Assembly: GCA_942491945.1 (NCBI GenBank)
Contig: CALODD010000116.1
Span: 1,008 to 65,007, forward strand
Direction of reading: 5' to 3'
DNA: 64,000 nt
DNA from: an uncultured Gammaproteobacteria bacterium
GTDB taxonomy: Bacteria; Pseudomonadota; Gammaproteobacteria; JAJDYQ01
The notes under the pieces are model-generated. The model had not been told where the DNA came from. It did no database searches and saw nothing but the letters and a program-made list of their open reading frames with translations. A program made the position numbers and the translations under genes. Below are positions 3,199 through 36,679 of the stretch, one piece after another; position 1 is the first letter of the stretch; the number at the start of each line of letters is the position of its first letter.

Positions 3199-3837
3199 AT
3201 GAATCAGGAACAGGCACGCGAAAACATGATCAAGCAACAGGTGCGAACCTGGGAGGTTTCAGACCCCAGAGTTTTGGCGCTAATGTACAAGTATCCTCGC
3301 GAAGAATTTGTACCATCACCCTGGCGGGATCTTGCCTATTCCGATACGAATATCGTGATTAATGACAGCAGCTGCATGCTGTTTCCTGGAATGGAGGCTC
3401 GCATGCTGCAGGCACTCGACGTCCAGTCAGGAGAGCGCGTGCTTGAGCTTGGGACGGGATGTGCATACATGACGGCATTACTGGCTGATCTTTCCGGTAA
3501 TGTTGTATCACTGGACACTACTGACAGCGTGCAGTCAGGTATTAGAGAAAACCTCGAAAATGTACAGTTTGAAACAGGCAGCGTGCTCGATGGGTGGCAG
3601 AATAAAGGCAGTTTTGACGTCATCGTATTGAATGGATCAGTGCAGTCGGTCCCAGAAGGTCTGCTTGATAAGCTAAACGTTGGCGGCAGGCTTTTCGCTG
3701 TTGTCGGAAATCAGCCTGTCATGTCTGCAACACTGATTACTCGCAACCAGGACCACAGCCTGGTAGAAGAAGTGTTGTTTGAAACATCGCTACCACGCCT
3801 GGCCTCCGCTGAGCAGGAAGATACATTTAATTTTTAA
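3199..3837 (+). CDS. Protein-L-isoaspartate O-methyltransferase family protein
   Basis: N-terminus MIKQQVRTWEVSDPRVLALMYKYPREEFVP and SAM-binding motif VLELGTGCAY are typical of the PCMT family. Confidence 0.7.
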   Translation: MNQEQARENMIKQQVRTWEVSDPRVLALMYKYPREEFVPSPWRDLAYSDTNIVINDSSCMLFPGMEARMLQALDVQSGERVLELGTGCAYMTALLADLSGNVVSLDTTDSVQSGIRENLENVQFETGSVLDGWQNKGSFDVIVLNGSVQSVPEGLLDKLNVGGRLFAVVGNQPVMSATLITRNQDHSLVEEVLFETSLPRLASAEQEDTFNF

Positions 3838-5134
3838 CGGCACCAGCCTGGTCTGAAGCTGCGCAGGTGTTTTCGGCCAGAGTGAATATAAGTTCTGATG
3901 TACGTTCCAGAGCGCCACGGTTTTGCAGCACAAGCTTCTTGCCTTTCTCACCTGTTTCAAACCTCAGGTTCGCGTCACCAAGATACGTCGCAACGGCGGC
4001 TACCAGTTCAGGAATGGTTTCCACCTGTTTACCGGCATGGCGGTCCAGTGTCAGCTGGCTGATTTCATCAAAATTGTGCATGTGAGGGCCAAAAATAACA
4101 GGCAGACCCACCGCGCAGGCCTCGAGTACATTGTGACCACCAACAGGCACCAGTGAACCACCGACAAAAGCAACGTCTGAAGCTGCATAAAGTTTAAGCA
4201 GTTCACCCATGCTGTCGGCAATGATCACCTCAATATCCTCATCAACCGGACCTCTCAGCTCGCTTCTAAGCACAGTTTTATAACCATCACGGCGGCTTAT
4301 TTTTGCGACAGGAACAAAGCGTTCAGGGTGCCGTGGGACAATCAGCAGGAGCAGGTCGGGATATGTGCGTCGCAGTTCCCGAAAGGCAACGAGTATCTGC
4401 TTTTCTTCATCGTCATGAGTGCTGGCGGCAATCCAGACCGGACGCATACTTCCGAAGTCACGGCGTAAAGATTCTGCTGCTTCACGCAGGCTGGCAGGTA
4501 ATTTTATTTCAAACTTGATGCTGCCGGTGATAGCATATGATCTTTTCGGTGCACCCATGCGCCGTAAGTCGACGGGCATCAGCGCGTGACTGAGCGGCAA
4601 TCAGGGATACCTTGCTTAGTGTCACACGTGTCAATTTTTCGAAACGAAATACCCACGCATAGATGATTCCGACATACGTGCATTGGCAACTACAATCGGA
4701 ATACCTCGTTGTTTACAGCCGTTGAATATATTAGGCCACAGCTCTGTTTCCAGAGTAACAGCAAGGCAGGGCTTGAGCTTGTCAAGGAAACGCTTTACAG
4801 ACCAGGCAAGGTCATAGGGTACGTAACAATGGAGCACACGACCACCTAATTGTCTTAATACCTCAGCCGATCCAGTAGGAGTCATTGTCGTCACCAGTAC
4901 CGAAGTGTCCGGGTAACGACTTAACAGTTCATTGATTAGAGGAACTGCAGCACGTGCTTCACCTACTGATACAGCATGAACCCAGATGACAGGAGCATCC
5001 GGTCTGAGATTGTTAAACCCAAAGCGTTCACCCCATCTTCTGAAGTAATCAGGATTCTTTAACCCGCGAATTAGCAGATGTAGAATGACTACAGGGATGA
5101 GCAGTGGCAGTAACAGGGAATAGAGCTTTAACAT
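3827..5134 (-). pseudogene. waaA: 3-deoxy-D-manno-octulosonic acid (Kdo) transferase WaaA, interrupted
   Basis: The N-terminal ORF (4631-5134: VIWVHAVSVGEARAAVPLI) and C-terminal ORF (3827-4600: AITGSIKFE...VPRHPERF) are in the same frame. About 66 nt between them only reads as KdtA-like (KLTRVTLSKVSLIAAQSRADARRL) in another frame. That implies two compensating 1-nt indels, one in the A5 run at 4634-4638. Confidence 0.8.
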
Positions 5135-13668: not shown

Positions 13669-14760
13669 TCAGGCCAGAATATCCACTACCGCCGTAGTGA
13701 CTTCTTTGCTTTCGATTGTCATCAGGCAATCACTAAGCTTGCTGTTTCCACAGCCATCAAGGCCGCAGGGCCGGCACGGATAAGGTGTCGTTAATACCTT
13801 GTGCCTGACATGCCAGGGACCCCAGATCTGTTCGTCACTGGGTCCGAATAAAGCGATGCAGGGTGTGTTCATGGCCGCTGCAATGTGCATCGGAACGGAA
13901 TCGAGGCCAATGAAACAGCCGGCCTTATCAACTATGACAGCCAGTTCCTTTAGACTCAGCTGACCTGCAAGATCTACAATCGGCAGCTCTCCAACGTCCG
14001 CCTTAATTTGGGCAACGACTTCAAGTTCGACAGGGTCAGGTGCAGAAGTAAGGACTAACTTATGTCCCATGTCATGCAGTTGTCGAATGACTTCTGCAAA
14101 GCCCTGTCTCGACCAGCCTTTGAACATCCAGCGGGAAGTTGGATGAATAAGTAAGTATTCACCCTGCTTCAGACCATGCTGCAGCAACAGTTCTGTGGCT
14201 TTGGCTTCTGCATCAGCGCCAGGGTTTAGTACCAGCCGCCGATCTTCAACAGCAGGATAAATGCCCAGGCGCCGCAGTGCATCGAGGTGTACTTCTACCG
14301 TATGGCGAGACCTGGCTGGAATGCCATAGGTATGTGTGAAGCTGTTTCTCCACCAGCGCCCACGTTTACCCGGGTAGGATTGCGCGACAGAATAAGCCGG
14401 TTTGAGGCGCCGTACCAGGCGCGCTCCCCGCGCATGCTCTGTCAGATGGATAATAAGATCATATTGACGACTGCGCAGGTTTTTTAACAGCTGCCGCTCA
14501 TGGCCCCATTGTGTAATGATGCTCTGTTTTTTCCAGTCCCTGTCTATACAGTGTAATTGGCTTAGTGCTGGATGGTCAGTCAGCATCGGGGATGTTTCAG
14601 AATAAACCAGGGCATCAATTTCCGCACCGGGAATTTGATTACCAACAACTGTGAAGACTGGTGAAGTGAGCAACACATCACCGAAATGCCGCAACTTGAT
14701 GATAAGGACGCGTTTTACTCTCGTCAGGTCTATCGCATCAGGCAGGTAGGATTCTTTCAT
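13669..14760 (-). CDS. LPS heptosyltransferase (GT9, heptosyltransferase III / WaaQ-like)
   Basis: RVLIIKLRHFGDVLLTSPVF...FIGLDSVPMHIAAAM, GT9 family motifs. Confidence 0.75.
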   Translation of the reverse strand: MKESYLPDAIDLTRVKRVLIIKLRHFGDVLLTSPVFTVVGNQIPGAEIDALVYSETSPMLTDHPALSQLHCIDRDWKKQSIITQWGHERQLLKNLRSRQYDLIIHLTEHARGARLVRRLKPAYSVAQSYPGKRGRWWRNSFTHTYGIPARSRHTVEVHLDALRRLGIYPAVEDRRLVLNPGADAEAKATELLLQHGLKQGEYLLIHPTSRWMFKGWSRQGFAEVIRQLHDMGHKLVLTSAPDPVELEVVAQIKADVGELPIVDLAGQLSLKELAVIVDKAGCFIGLDSVPMHIAAAMNTPCIALFGPSDEQIWGPWHVRHKVLTTPYPCRPCGLDGCGNSKLSDCLMTIESKEVTTAVVDILA

Positions 14761-14766
14761 GGAATA

Positions 14767-14801
14767 ATTTCAGTTTTCAGTTTTCAGTTTTCAGTTTTCA
14801 G
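14767..14801. repeat. Heptanucleotide tandem repeat (T/A)TTTCAG x5
   Basis: Read directly: ATTTCAG then TTTTCAG x4. It begins 7 nt upstream of the heptosyltransferase start codon at 14760 (minus strand). Confidence 0.95.
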
Positions 14802-14857
14802 TTCCAAGTTCCAAGTTCCAAGTTCCAAGTTCCAAGTTCCAAGTTCCAAGTTCCAAG
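14802..14857. repeat. Heptanucleotide tandem repeat TTCCAAG x8
   Basis: Read directly: 8 perfect units, abutting the first repeat. A polypyrimidine tract follows at 14868-14905. Confidence 0.95.
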
Positions 14858-14908
14858 AAAAAACTATTCTTAGTTTTCCCCTTTCCTCTTTTTCTTTTTC
14901 TCTGAGTT

Positions 14909-15913
14909 TTACTCCTGCATCTTCGCCCACTTTGATTCCCATTCATAGGCCGTGCGGCAAATCACTTCCAGGTCCTGATAGCGTGTTTTCCAGTCCAGCA
15001 GTTGATGTATCAATTGATTGCCGGCGATTAATTCCGGCGGGTCACCAGCACGTCTTGGTGATTCAATAACGGTGAAGTCTACACCACTAACCTTTTTTAC
15101 CATCTGGATCACTTCACGTACCGAATAACCCTGACCATAACCACAGTTGATAATTTGCGAGTCGCCGCCGGCCCTTAACCTGGCTACAGCTGACAGGTGG
15201 GCAGAGGCAAGATCCTCAACATGAATATAATCGCGCACACCGGTGCCATCACTGGTGGGGTAGTCAGTACCGAATATTTCGATAGATTCACGCTGACCCA
15301 GTGCGGCCTGGCAAGCTACCTTGATTAAATGCGTTGCCTCGGGTGTTGCCTGGCCGACTTTCAGGTCGGCGCGGGCACCGGCGACATTAAAATATCGTAG
15401 AGCCGTGAAGCGAAAATTATCCTCAACATCCGGTCGATTTGACAGGTCTTTCATCATCCATTCAGTCATCAGTTTTGAGCGACCATAGGCATTTATCGGT
15501 GAAGTCTCTGTCTGCTCTGTAGCGGGTTGTTCGTCAGGGATGCCATAGACTGCAGCTGTCGATGAGAAGACAAATTGATTTACCCCGCTATTAACGCAGG
15601 CCTCGAGCAGGTTGCGAGAATTTTGTGTGTTGTTGCGGTAGTACTTCAGCGGATCAGTGACTGATTCAGGGACCACGATATGACCTGCAAAGTGGATGAC
15701 TGTATCTACATCATGCTCTTGCATAAGCTGTGAAGCCAGTTCAATGTCTCCGGCATCACCTTCAACCAGCACAGCTTCTTTCGGTACAGCCCAGCGGTGG
15801 CCGGAATAGAAATTGTCTATGATAACTACTTTTTCACCGGCATCGACGAGTTGATGGCAGGTATGTGAGCCGATATATCCGGCACCACCGGTCACCAGTA
15901 CTGACTTAGTCAT
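14909..15913 (-). CDS. galE: UDP-glucose 4-epimerase
   Basis: VLVTGGAGYIGSHTCHQLVDAG...YGRSKLM (YxxxK); full-length GalE-like. Confidence 0.85.
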   Translation of the reverse strand: MTKSVLVTGGAGYIGSHTCHQLVDAGEKVVIIDNFYSGHRWAVPKEAVLVEGDAGDIELASQLMQEHDVDTVIHFAGHIVVPESVTDPLKYYRNNTQNSRNLLEACVNSGVNQFVFSSTAAVYGIPDEQPATEQTETSPINAYGRSKLMTEWMMKDLSNRPDVEDNFRFTALRYFNVAGARADLKVGQATPEATHLIKVACQAALGQRESIEIFGTDYPTSDGTGVRDYIHVEDLASAHLSAVARLRAGGDSQIINCGYGQGYSVREVIQMVKKVSGVDFTVIESPRRAGDPPELIAGNQLIHQLLDWKTRYQDLEVICRTAYEWESKWAKMQE

Positions 15914-16943
15914 TTATTAACTCCTTAGTTCGTTGATTTATTTGTTGTTGAAGCTGTTGCCAGACTGTCACAGGTTTTATGGACTGGTAACAGGCGGGAT
16001 GAACTGCTGACTCTTTTGTATATGTGCATTCACGCCGCAGGCAGGGCGCACATTCAAAATCGGCAGATAACTGTACCTGAAATTGCCCCCTGGTGCCGGT
16101 TAGCGAAGGATCAGTTGAACCGTATATCGACACGGCAGGTAACGACAGGGCAGCTGCAAGGTGTCCAAGTCCGGTATCGACAGCAATTGCACCGGCTGAA
16201 CAGGATAGCAGTGATGCTATCTCATTTAAATCCATTGCCGGTGACAGCTGCGCCAGATTATTGTTTTGTGCAAGCCTGTTTGCGCGTGCTTTTTCTTCAT
16301 CGTTGCCCCAGGGTAGTTGCACCTGGAACCCATCATTCGTTGCCAGGTTTACCAGTTCCAGCCAGTACGGCTCTGGCCAGTGTTTGCTTTGCCAGGTAGT
16401 GCCATGCAGAAACACCAGCTGTCTGGAAGCGATAGCTGGATCTTCGGTATAGATTCCGTATTCTGCAGGAGTAGCTGGGAGTGGGTAATCAAAAGATTTT
16501 GCAAACAGTTCACGTACGCGTTCAATAGCATGCTTGCCTTTACTGACATGATGAGTTTTATCATAGCTCAAAGCCACCAGGCGCTCGCGAGCAGAAGTGC
16601 GGTCAAAGCCATGTGATGTACTTTTTACCATTCGTGTAAGCCATGCACTTTTAAGCAGTCCCTGGGCATCAATGACCAGGTCATAATCAGCAGCCTGGAT
16701 CCGGTGCTTGAATTCGTGCCACTGGTGGCGTGTCTGCTTTGAAAGAGGGGCCTTGCGCCATCGGCGCAAGGCAACCGGAATAACCTGGATGACAGCACTA
16801 TGCCATGATGGAATTGGGGAAAAAGCTTCTTCCACCACCCAGTCGAATAATAGACCAGGTATTTCGCGTTGTGCATCAGTCAATGCCGGCAAGGCATGAA
16901 CCACATCACCAAGTGAGGATGTTTTGACAATCAATACACGCAT
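15906..16943 (-). CDS. waaC: LPS heptosyltransferase I
   Basis: MRVLIVKTSSLGDVVHALPALTDA...AIAVDTGLGHLAAAL. It overlaps the galE start by 8 nt. Confidence 0.8.
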   Translation of the reverse strand: MRVLIVKTSSLGDVVHALPALTDAQREIPGLLFDWVVEEAFSPIPSWHSAVIQVIPVALRRWRKAPLSKQTRHQWHEFKHRIQAADYDLVIDAQGLLKSAWLTRMVKSTSHGFDRTSARERLVALSYDKTHHVSKGKHAIERVRELFAKSFDYPLPATPAEYGIYTEDPAIASRQLVFLHGTTWQSKHWPEPYWLELVNLATNDGFQVQLPWGNDEEKARANRLAQNNNLAQLSPAMDLNEIASLLSCSAGAIAVDTGLGHLAAALSLPAVSIYGSTDPSLTGTRGQFQVQLSADFECAPCLRRECTYTKESAVHPACYQSIKPVTVWQQLQQQINQRTKELIND

Positions 16944-35420: not shown

Positions 35421-36679
35421 ATGGCCAACGACTCTAAAAATGTATTGCAGCGTGGTCTGGAAAATATCCACGATCCTTTTTCCAATTTCATTCGCGCCCA
35501 GACAACCTCCAGCCTGTTTCTCCTGGTCGCTACAATCGCTGCCCTTTGGTGAGCGCACCAGCTTATTCTTCTACCTACCATGAATCTTATACACACGCCG
35601 ATTGGTTTTTTTGTGGGAGAATTCGAGCTACGGGCTTCACTCAAACACATTTATTAATGATGGTGTATTTTTCTTCCTGCTCGGTCTTGAGATCAAACGG
35701 GAAGTACTAGCCGGTGACCTCGCTCGACCTGAAAATCGACGTATGCTGATTCTCTGTGCCGCCGGTGGAATGGTTTGTCCGGCTGTGATTTATTCCCTGT
35801 TCAACTGGTCACTTGATTCACAGATTGGATGGGGCATACCAATGGCAACCGATACCGCGTTTGCGCTGGGTGTCCTCACCATCGTGAGAAAACATATACC
35901 TGTTAGCCTCCTGGCGTTCATCGTTGGCCTCGCCATTGTCGACGATGTCGGCGCGATACTGGTCATTGCAATATTTTACACCCAGGAACATTCTTTAATT
36001 CATCTGTCCGGATCACCCACTGCACGCGCCGCCGCGGCGGCACCCGCCGGCAGTCGCCCGGGCAGCCGCGGATGCCGGTCTTCAGGTCTGCGCGCCCCCC
36101 GGGTCGCCACCGCCCTCGACGGCGCCGCAGATCCCAAGTTAGCATCAGGAAATTGCTTGATAATGCAAAATGGGGGGGGGGGGGGGGGGGGTTATTCGCA
36201 AGAAAAAGCAAGGGGGGAGCCGGAGAAGGGAAGAAAAGGGGAGGGGAGGGCGGTATTTCCGTGGGGAGGGGCGCTTGCTGCTAGCCTATTCATCTTACCG
36301 CGGTTCACATTCGCCAGCTGGCGTAGTATTTGGCTTTAGCTCATTTACTCGATAGCCTCGCAGCATCCAATTGGATTGGAGGAATTTATTCTGGACGTCG
36401 TGGTTGGGTCTGCGCTGCAAAATTGGCTGCTTACCTGATGACGTTAATTTAAAACATGTGTTAGGTGTTTCGCTCATAGCGGGAATAGGATTCACTATGT
36501 CGACTTTTATCGCCGCACTGGGTTTTGACGCGCAACCCGAGCATCTCCATAACGCAAAAACATCGATCCTGGTCGCCTCAGTTCTTTCCGCAGTCCTTGG
36601 TGTTTTATATTTTCGTATACTATCTACAAAAAGTTATAACAGGTCCCTCAATTCGACACCAGGAAATGGCGCGAATTAG
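35421..36679 (+). pseudogene. nhaA: Na+/H+ antiporter NhaA, copy 1, heavily disrupted
   Basis: Recognisable segments are FIRAQTTSSLFLLVATIAALW, INDGVFFFLLGLEIKREVLAGDL, GWGIPMATDTAFALGVL, AIVDDVGAILVIAIFYT and C-terminal LIAGIGFTMSTFIAALGF. They lie in different frames, with an aberrant patch in the middle. Confidence 0.8.
36003..36275. other. Compositionally aberrant patch (very GC-rich, then G-rich with a G20 run at 36172-36191) inside nhaA copy 1
   Basis: Read directly. The patch is still collinear with nhaA copy 2 (47.5-47.9 kb), for example CCAAGTTAGCATCAGGAAATTGCTTGATAATGCAAAATG versus CCAAAGTTGACATCGGAAAAACTAGCCATTAATGCGAAGAC. Confidence 0.8.

Follow-up and report, generated by a model that had tools for sequence, protein, structure and literature searches.

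Hypermutable heptanucleotide arrays between galE and a putative heptosyltransferase III gene of an uncultured Arenicellales bacterium, a candidate leader for graded tuning of translation

Surface variation driven by simple sequence repeats (SSRs) is textbook biology for host-adapted pathogens, and to our knowledge no role has been established for the abundant heptamer repeats of environmental bacteria. Here, we analysed 64,000 nucleotides (nt) of contig CALODD010000116.1 (assembly GCA_942491945.1, positions 1,008 to 65,007 of the forward strand) from an uncultured gammaproteobacterium. This whole stretch is called the window below, and coordinates refer to it unless the contig of a relative is named. 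In the window, two abutting heptanucleotide arrays lie between galE, which encodes UDP-glucose 4-epimerase, and hepIII, which encodes a putative lipopolysaccharide (LPS) heptosyltransferase III. A sequence-only reading had described the arrays as a candidate phase-variation switch that alters promoter spacing or the length of the 5′ untranslated region (5′-UTR) of hepIII. The features of the locus, all on the minus strand, are as follows.

13669..14760, minus strand: hepIII, putative LPS heptosyltransferase III of glycosyltransferase (GT) family GT9 (TIGR02201, 299.7 bits; cut-off 170.2)
14761..14766, minus strand: TATTCC, the 6 nt from the last repeat unit to the ATG, without a Shine-Dalgarno (SD) sequence
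14767..14801, minus strand: start-proximal heptamer array, (CTGAAAA)x4 then CTGAAAT (Tandem Repeats Finder, direct read)
14802..14857, minus strand: distal heptamer array, (CTTGGAA)x8, perfect (Tandem Repeats Finder, direct read)
14858..14873, minus strand: unique 16-nt spacer CTAAGAATAGTTTTTT, conserved in the close lineage; it separates the arrays from the purine tract
14874..14903, minus strand: 30-nt all-purine tract AGAGAAAAAGAAAAAGAGGAAAGGGGAAAA (direct read; period-6 Tandem Repeats Finder row at 14887-14901)
14909..15913, minus strand: galE, UDP-glucose 4-epimerase, the upstream gene (TIGR01179, 441 bits; stop codon at 14909-14911)
15906..16943, minus strand: rfaC/waaC, heptosyltransferase I, overlapping the galE start by 8 nt

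Tandem Repeats Finder reported two perfect period-7 arrays, one at 14768-14803 (5.1 copies, 100% matches, score 72) and one at 14800-14857 (8.3 copies, 100%, score 116). Read with regular expressions on the forward strand, they resolve into ATTTCAG plus (TTTTCAG)x4 (14767-14801, 35 nt) and (TTCCAAG)x8 (14802-14857, 56 nt), together 91 nt. The two abutting arrays, the identities of hepIII and galE and the lack of an SD sequence between repeat and start codon were all as the sequence-only reading had given them. On the coding strand, the 148-nt gap runs from the galE stop through AACTC, the 30-nt purine tract, the unique 16-nt spacer, (CTTGGAA)8, (CTGAAAA)4 CTGAAAT and TATTCC to the ATG at 14760. 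The purine tract is also present as described earlier, but its uninterrupted run is 30 nt (14874-14903) and not 38 nt. To judge from its relatives, this tract is a degenerate third heptamer array built of GAGGAAA/GGGGAAA units. It holds a single GGGG run in the window, where a G-quadruplex takes at least four runs of three or more G. In the spacers of three relatives, L083 (1-45), L007 (80-131) and L170, the tract has grown to (GGGGAAA)x4-5 or more, and such expanded alleles could form a G-quadruplex in the coding strand or the mRNA.

The arrays are neither accidental nor coding. When the 64-kb window was searched for heptamer doublets, (CTKRAAA)x2 with at most one mismatch, five were found, all within the array; 0.49 were expected, and none of 100 shuffles reached five, which excludes a chance origin. 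In the start-proximal array each of the three frames meets a TGA, at distances of 12, 19 and 26 nt from the hepIII ATG. Since an in-frame TGA lies 12 nt upstream of the ATG and the HepIII N-terminus MKESYLPD is conserved among relatives, the repeats are non-coding, and an N-terminal extension of HepIII was ruled out on the same grounds. The distal array is open in all three frames, and each of its units contributes a GGA and a TTG. Open reading frames (ORFs) of 51-52 amino acids on the minus strand and one of 127 amino acids on the plus strand run over the arrays only because CTTGGAA and the reverse complements of both units are free of stops. No AGGAGG-like sequence is present in the 6 nt (TATTCC) before the ATG. 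This absence is not exceptional, as a 4-mer SD sequence precedes only 12 of the 33 first-ATG ORFs of the window.

Close relatives of the locus were collected by exact-sequence look-up of members of the 90%-identity protein cluster; an exact look-up of the window's own HepIII gave no record, and cluster members were used instead. Across close relatives, CTGAAAA is found in 2-5 copies and CTTGGAA in 2-8. In the long-array lineage, which includes the window and whose hepIII differs at no more than 8 of 1092 nt from that of the reference contig L164, 13 complete spacers represent 11 distinct alleles, with 4-8 copies of CTTGGAA, 2-4 copies of CTGAAAA and a purine tract of 28-63 nt that changes in 7-nt steps. 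The spacers of the long-array relatives measure 114-163 nt, with 7-nt steps throughout; the 148 nt of the window are out of step by one extra GAAAAA, a duplication in its purine tract that was found in the window only. For pairs with at most two differences in 2080 flanking nt, the spacers differ in 8 of 9 cases, mostly at two or three arrays. In the short-array sister lineage, whose hepIII is 23-27 nt different and in which CCTGGAA, CTTGGAA, CTGAAAA and CTGAAAT are single units, 15 of 15 complete spacers are identical (78 nt), and in the array-less lineage 7 of 7 are identical (25 nt). Since the long arrays are hypervariable while the single-unit and array-less lineages are invariant, the arrays are a length-dependent slippage hot spot. 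The sequence-only reading had proposed to look for repeat-number heterogeneity among related strains, and 11 alleles in 13 spacers is a positive result. Taken together, these results show that the arrays expand and contract by slipped-strand mispairing in 7-nt steps, at a rate far above that of point substitution, and that nearly every strain of this Arenicellales population has its own spacer allele.

Differences of this kind could in principle be errors of short-read assemblers. Logan contigs (k = 31) do break within the arrays (L189, L202-L206), and the window has local defects elsewhere, namely frameshifts in waaA and an insert with a 20-G run (see below). The arrays of 56 and 35 nt are nevertheless shorter than the k = 141 of MEGAHIT and than typical reads, and every difference consists of whole units, in three separate arrays. 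In addition, the 15 short-array and 7 array-less contigs are invariant over several assemblers and projects, and identical alleles were recovered from independent sources (L164 and L198; L173 and L199). An assembly artefact is effectively excluded.

More distant relatives keep heptamer arrays at the same site. In orthologous spacers of relatives at 70-98% nt identity, the arrays have the same orientation and end 0-16 nt from the ATG. Their composition varies: (CTTGGAA)2 (CTGAAAA)5 in L081, five units then three, degenerate copies included, in L001, seven and three units in L109, (CTTGAAA)3 in L163 and (CTTGAAA)4 in L086. At 70-86% nt identity the units have drifted to CTTGAAA, CCTGAAA or CCTGGAA, in arrays of up to 17 units; L090 has 17 CTTGAAA/CCTGGAA units, and L007 has 10 CCTGAAA/CTTGGAA units plus (GGGGAAA)5. 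Short arrays of GACGAAG, ACTAAGG or CCGAAAA are found in L003, L043, L004 and L008. In array-less relatives (L085, L091, L105, L005/L006, L002), galE and hepIII either overlap at a shared stop and start (ATGA) or are separated by 9-26 nt. The spacers of L087, L088, L009 and L089 contain unrelated palindromic inserts. GC-rich palindromic elements resembling repetitive extragenic palindromes or miniature inverted-repeat transposable elements, e.g. GTGGGAGGCGCGCCC..CGCGGCGAA, were seen in L087 (~1330-1480, 2610-2650), L088, L008, L009 and L089, and one of them reappears downstream of hepIII in L087. These palindromic elements mark the galE-hepIII spacer as a general insertion hot spot.

Taken as classical phase variation, the earlier proposal would place the arrays in or next to a hepIII promoter, where a change in unit number alters the spacing of promoter elements and flips the gene on or off. 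Several features agree with it: a perfect SSR stands directly 5′ of an LPS glycosyltransferase gene, its copy number is highly polymorphic, and by direct read the CTTGAAA/CTTGGAA units include the -35-like hexamers TTGAAA/TTGGAA. The spacer did not yield a promoter, as even a lenient scan with the sigma-70 consensus found no -35/-10 pair in it, and the 10 promoter-like sites in the 6.3-kb region match chance (7.6 ± 3.0). The sequence from the array to the ATG, TGAAATTATTCC, has only weak -10-like hexamers, from which a transcript would start at or inside the start codon. Hand-picked candidates (-10 TGAAAT/AATTAT, -35 CTGAAA/TTGGAA) were rejected for a poor match or for a transcript start at or inside the ATG. 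Moreover, a unit change in a homogeneous array leaves the local spacing and the ATG-adjacent sequence unaltered.

Gene order points the same way. No terminator-like hairpin was found in the spacer, and the order and overlapping stop and start codons in relatives indicate that galE and hepIII are co-transcribed. The 8-nt overlap of rfaC and galE indicates an operon-like gene run, in which hepIII is the last of the minus-strand genes, stands alone downstream of the arrays and faces a convergent GT4 gene. From the lack of a promoter or terminator in the spacer, the tight galE-hepIII arrangement in relatives and the rfaC-galE overlap, we infer that the arrays are operon-internal and transcribed as the leader of hepIII. 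The gene is also intact behind every allele, with a ratio of nonsynonymous to synonymous polymorphism (pN/pS) of 0.13-0.36 within and between lineages, which indicates purifying selection and argues that the arrays are not silencing hepIII over evolutionary time; no sign of relaxed selection was seen. A change of promoter spacing and an on/off switch find no support at this locus, and we regard the promoter-spacing model as very unlikely.

The leader is predicted to be unstructured. The minimum free energy of the spacer RNA is -21.4 compared with a shuffle mean of -25.1 (z = +1.26), that is, it is less structured than the shuffles, and the only predicted fold in the spacer is a short A/U hairpin outside the arrays. 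No consensus structure was found across the lineages (0 consensus pairs), and a conserved hairpin that would pair the purine tract with a T-run was rejected on this result. A search of Rfam was negative for the spacer at E ≤ 1 and, at gathering thresholds, for the whole window.

From these observations we propose that the arrays sit in a rfaC-galE-hepIII transcription unit and are transcribed as the hepIII leader. They would substitute a long, A-rich, unstructured and SD-less spacer, ending 6 nt before the AUG, for the tight coupling of galE and hepIII. Copy number would set the length of this leader, and leader length may alter ribosome loading or re-initiation after galE, possibly also mRNA stability. 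The outcome would be a graded, heritable and reversible strain-to-strain variation of HepIII and hence of LPS inner-core substitution, a rheostat and not an on/off switch. We give this explanation, a hypermutable SSR in a transcribed leader with graded tuning of HepIII translation, roughly an even chance. Opening of the start region (-20 to +13) is predicted to cost 1.3-6.5 kcal/mol in array alleles versus 6.4-18.7 kcal/mol in array-less or overlapping ones, which is consistent with a leader that helps a start without an SD sequence to stay accessible.

Several points weigh against graded tuning. The contrast in opening energies is confounded, because the array-less alleles have GC-richer upstream coding sequence. 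Even without long arrays, hepIII is conserved in the short-array and array-less lineages, which means that long arrays are not required. The units drift in relatives (CTTGGAA, CTTGAAA, CCTGAAA, ACTAAGG, GACGAAG), which argues against a strict sequence-specific site. The variation was seen between assemblies from different samples and not within a clonal population, and the promoter scan covered the sigma-70 consensus only. Finally, Mrazek 2007, as summarised in PMC4679880 and PMC4692102, found no long SSR class in prokaryotes to be commoner than heptamers, and this abundance has been ascribed to polymerase slippage alone.

This last point leads to the main rival, in which the arrays are a neutral hypermutable repeat: slippage in a tolerant spacer, regenerated by expansion and contraction and without an effect on HepIII. 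Period-7 arrays appear to be generally favoured. In 614 kb of unrelated, non-clade LPS loci, arrays of at least three copies numbered 20 for period 7, 6 for period 6 and 7 for period 8, an approximately threefold excess that agrees with the reported general abundance of heptamers. The unconserved unit sequence, the retention of hepIII in single-unit and array-less lineages and the acceptance of unrelated palindromic inserts by the spacer also fit neutrality. Against it stand the persistence of arrays at one site in relatives down to ~70% nt identity and their position, abutting the start codon in constant orientation. A shift of 60-160 nt in the untranslated distance between coupled genes would, in addition, be unlikely to be neutral for translation.

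Two sets of arrays outside the clade also speak against neutrality. In three metagenome-assembled genomes (MAGs) of Syntrophaceae, (GAAACTT)2.9-4.9 or (AACCCGT)3.4 ends 4-11 nt before the ATG of a heptosyltransferase II gene (TIGR02195, 234.8 bits) downstream of lpxL (L052 1350-1373, L053 1333-1370, L050 64-98). The (GAAACTT)n arrays are given a distance of 4 nt; GAAACTT is the CTTGAAA unit in another register, and this is an independent case, in another phylum, before another heptosyltransferase gene. In viral sequences from IMG/VR, (CTGAAAA) in at least three copies occurs in 52 stretches, and an ORF start lies within 60 nt downstream of 34 of 54 arrays in the forward orientation versus 13 of 54 in the reverse, with distances clustering at 12-27 nt. 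A stricter gene-set analysis gave 10 arrays in the same and 3 in the opposite orientation relative to co-directional neighbours; many ORFs of the GC-rich contigs appear to be antisense, which makes this analysis noisy and supportive only. This bias suggests, but does not prove, an orientation-dependent role of the CTGAAAA unit on the mRNA strand. On the whole evidence, we consider a neutral repeat unlikely, with an appreciable chance of being right.

Some phage contigs carry four to seven (CTGAAAA)3-4 arrays each, on one strand only (L261, L281, L294, L243/L246/L247/L248, L252, L271). Several of these arrays precede either a CTTGAAA unit or an SD+ATG pair, and L252 has inverted array pairs, (TTTTCAG)n...(CTGAAAA)n. 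From their layout, the phage arrays appear to be an undescribed dispersed intergenic element.

A further possibility is that the repeats are bound by a protein or engage ribosomes. In the first version, they would be reiterated sites for an RNA-binding protein (ribosomal protein S1, a GGA-recognising CsrA-like protein or a cold-shock protein, Csp) or for a DNA-binding protein, with the number of copies setting the valency. In the second, an upstream ORF (uORF) relay, weak GGAA-N8-TTG configurations in (CUUGGAA)n would let ribosomes load; these would terminate in the three-frame UGA cassette that (CUGAAAA)n provides, and translation would begin again at the AUG. GGA does occur in every CTTGGAA unit and in the purine tract, the CTTGGAA unit, which has a TTG, leaves all frames open, and (CTGAAAA) in at least three copies supplies the three stops ahead of the ATG. 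Phage (CTGAAAA)3-4 arrays likewise stand just upstream of SD+ATG pairs, and identical candidate binders have been proposed for TAACTGA repeats (PMC4679880). Yet the order of units is scrambled in L007 and L090, unit sequences drift, and a stop triplet occurs in ~30% of random heptamers, which means that the stop cassette is possibly incidental. Taken jointly, the two versions seem improbable to us.

The TAACTGA repeats are the closest described relatives in anatomy. According to MacGregor 2015 (PMC4679880), these heptamer direct repeats of marine Beggiatoaceae and some Cyanobacteria and Bacteroidetes are oriented forward, lie mostly one to a few nt before SD-less starts, have no predicted structure and have stops in all frames; a translational role via S1, Csp or CsrA was proposed there and is unproven. 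Here and in all array-bearing relatives, forward heptamers likewise lie near an SD-less start, and the spacer studied here shares the lack of predicted RNA structure and the stops in three frames. The proximal unit, read as AAACTGA, is one base from TAACTGA (6/7), and the distal unit, read as GAACTTG, matches at 4/7 in its best register. Unlike in that class, the unit is not TAACTGA, AAACTGA makes only 4 doublets in the BOGUAY genome, and three different tandem arrays of up to 8 copies are present. BOGUAY has 169 TAACTGA sets per genome, whereas no further set occurs in the 64-kb window. No further heptamer doublets were found in the window or the fetched flanks, a weak negative since ~2 would be expected at BOGUAY density. 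Hypervariability between near-identical strains is seen here and is not reported for TAACTGA repeats in the parts of PMC4679880 that were read. As genome-wide dispersion is not demonstrated, we do not file the locus in the TAACTGA class, although on sequence features its anatomy resembles these repeats more than the Haemophilus hmw switch.

In Haemophilus influenzae, hmw1A/hmw2A (ATCTTTC)n is a transcribed 5′-UTR heptamer repeat with graded output, in which base pairing between the repeats and a G-rich segment creates a long hairpin processed by RNase III (PMC12721329). Both systems have a 7-nt SSR of polymorphic copy number upstream of a surface-related gene; leader transcription and a graded effect would be further likenesses here. 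In contrast to hmw, the leader here has no hairpin between repeat and a G-rich segment (z = +1.26, no consensus structure), which removes the earlier analogy at the RNA level, the repeat is probably operon-internal and not placed behind a dedicated promoter, and the host is environmental. Moraxella uspA2 (AGAT)n is a related 5′-UTR repeat. In mucosal pathogens, phase-variable LPS glycosyltransferase genes carry tetranucleotides (Haemophilus lic/lgtC) or homopolymers (Neisseria, Campylobacter), mostly inside the reading frame, where they give on/off frameshifts. The locus studied here resembles these in linking an SSR to an LPS core glycosyltransferase gene, a linkage that in the pathogen loci leads to population surface heterogeneity. 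It differs in that the repeat lies outside the ORF, where a gain or loss of 7 nt has no effect on the reading frame, and in that the gene is intact. Two characters of SSR contingency loci of the promoter/5′-UTR class are present at the site, a perfect repeat 6 nt from the ATG and a fast, length-dependent change in copy number.

Long intergenic heptamer SSRs are also known from non-pathogens, such as GGGAATC in Xanthomonas and GGGGAYT and TTTTGAA in Nostoc (PMC4692102; bioRxiv 10.1101/2022.06.06.494920); they belong with the long SSRs of the 5-11 nt class of Mrazek 2007, as summarised in PMC4692102 and PMC4679880. The Xanthomonas arrays vary widely among close relatives (PMC4692102), and those heptamers of Nostoc that lie close to start codons have been linked to regulation (bioRxiv 10.1101/2022.06.06.494920). 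Like these, the arrays described here are intergenic, beyond chance length and polymorphic in close relatives, and some heptamers of both kinds lie near starts or promoters; the (GGGGAAA)n purine tract of the relatives resembles the G-rich Xanthomonas and Nostoc units. Unlike these, the two main units are not G-rich and have no G-quadruplex capacity, and the arrays are confined to one LPS-operon site as far as 64 kb shows. In our literature search, these exact heptamer doublets were not found in any bacterial paper.

Heptamer arrays were also seen inside intact GT4/GT9 reading frames of other loci, in interdomain linkers or near the C-terminus (L054/L140, L064/L159, L038/L042, L133/L135; for example L054 4480-4514, L140 2231-2265, L064 4495-4527 and L159 2983-3030). 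Orthologues have different units at the same position (ACTTCCG vs CCCTCTA, both x5), and a second pair of orthologues shows a 15-nt difference in array length with the frame preserved. These are possible frameshift-type variable glycosyltransferases of environmental bacteria.

The arrays lie in an LPS core cluster (3.8-16.9 kb of the window) that also contains waaA, GT2, O-antigen-ligase-like, GT4 and tviB/tviC-like genes. The nearest relatives are sediment-derived MAGs labelled Arenicellales or Gammaproteobacteria; by this kinship, the host is an environmental Arenicellales sediment bacterium and not a mucosal pathogen, the setting with which the locus had first been compared. Two defects in other genes of the window were noted. 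The Kdo transferase gene waaA (3827-5134, minus strand) is read as two ORFs, a PF04413 N-domain and a GT1-like C-part, with a break near 4540-4650. Its single-frame translation has four stops in ~15 codons, and the conserved SLIAAQS is in a different frame. This pattern suggests two frameshifts that compensate each other, whether from sequence errors or from damage to the gene. The second defect divides an NhaA-type Na+/H+ antiporter gene between ORF 35602-36339 (PF06965 52-181) and ORF 36371-36679 (PF06965 302-373), separated by a GC- and purine-rich insert of ~350 nt with a 20-G homopolymer (36172-36191) and a 29-nt purine run. This insert has the look of a poly-G artefact of assembly or sequencing, or of a pseudogene, and not of a phase-variable tract.

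A broader reading is that heptamer arrays abutting the start codons of LPS-core heptosyltransferase genes are a recurrent, unrecognised contingency device of free-living sediment bacteria. Their unstructured leader, with its 7-nt period, would serve as a tunable platform on which ribosomes load or re-initiate, or would offer S1-, CsrA- or Csp-like proteins a multivalent site, possibly with the three-frame stop cassette as a part, and phages would use (CTGAAAA)n before genes of their own. We offer this only tentatively and think it doubtful; if it is true, slippage would diversify the LPS inner core within populations under phage or grazer pressure.

Public metagenomes provide a natural experiment at this locus, in which one gene stands behind long arrays with many alleles, behind single units with one allele and behind no array with one allele, and this three-class comparison demonstrates hypermutability. 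If copy number has no effect on HepIII, the locus would illustrate cleanly how neutral bacterial microsatellites behave in a length-dependent manner. Should copy number tune HepIII, start-proximal heptamers of the TAACTGA-like class would gain their first data on variability at strain level, and the contingency-locus concept would reach uncultured marine-sediment Gammaproteobacteria through LPS-core heterogeneity made by slippage.

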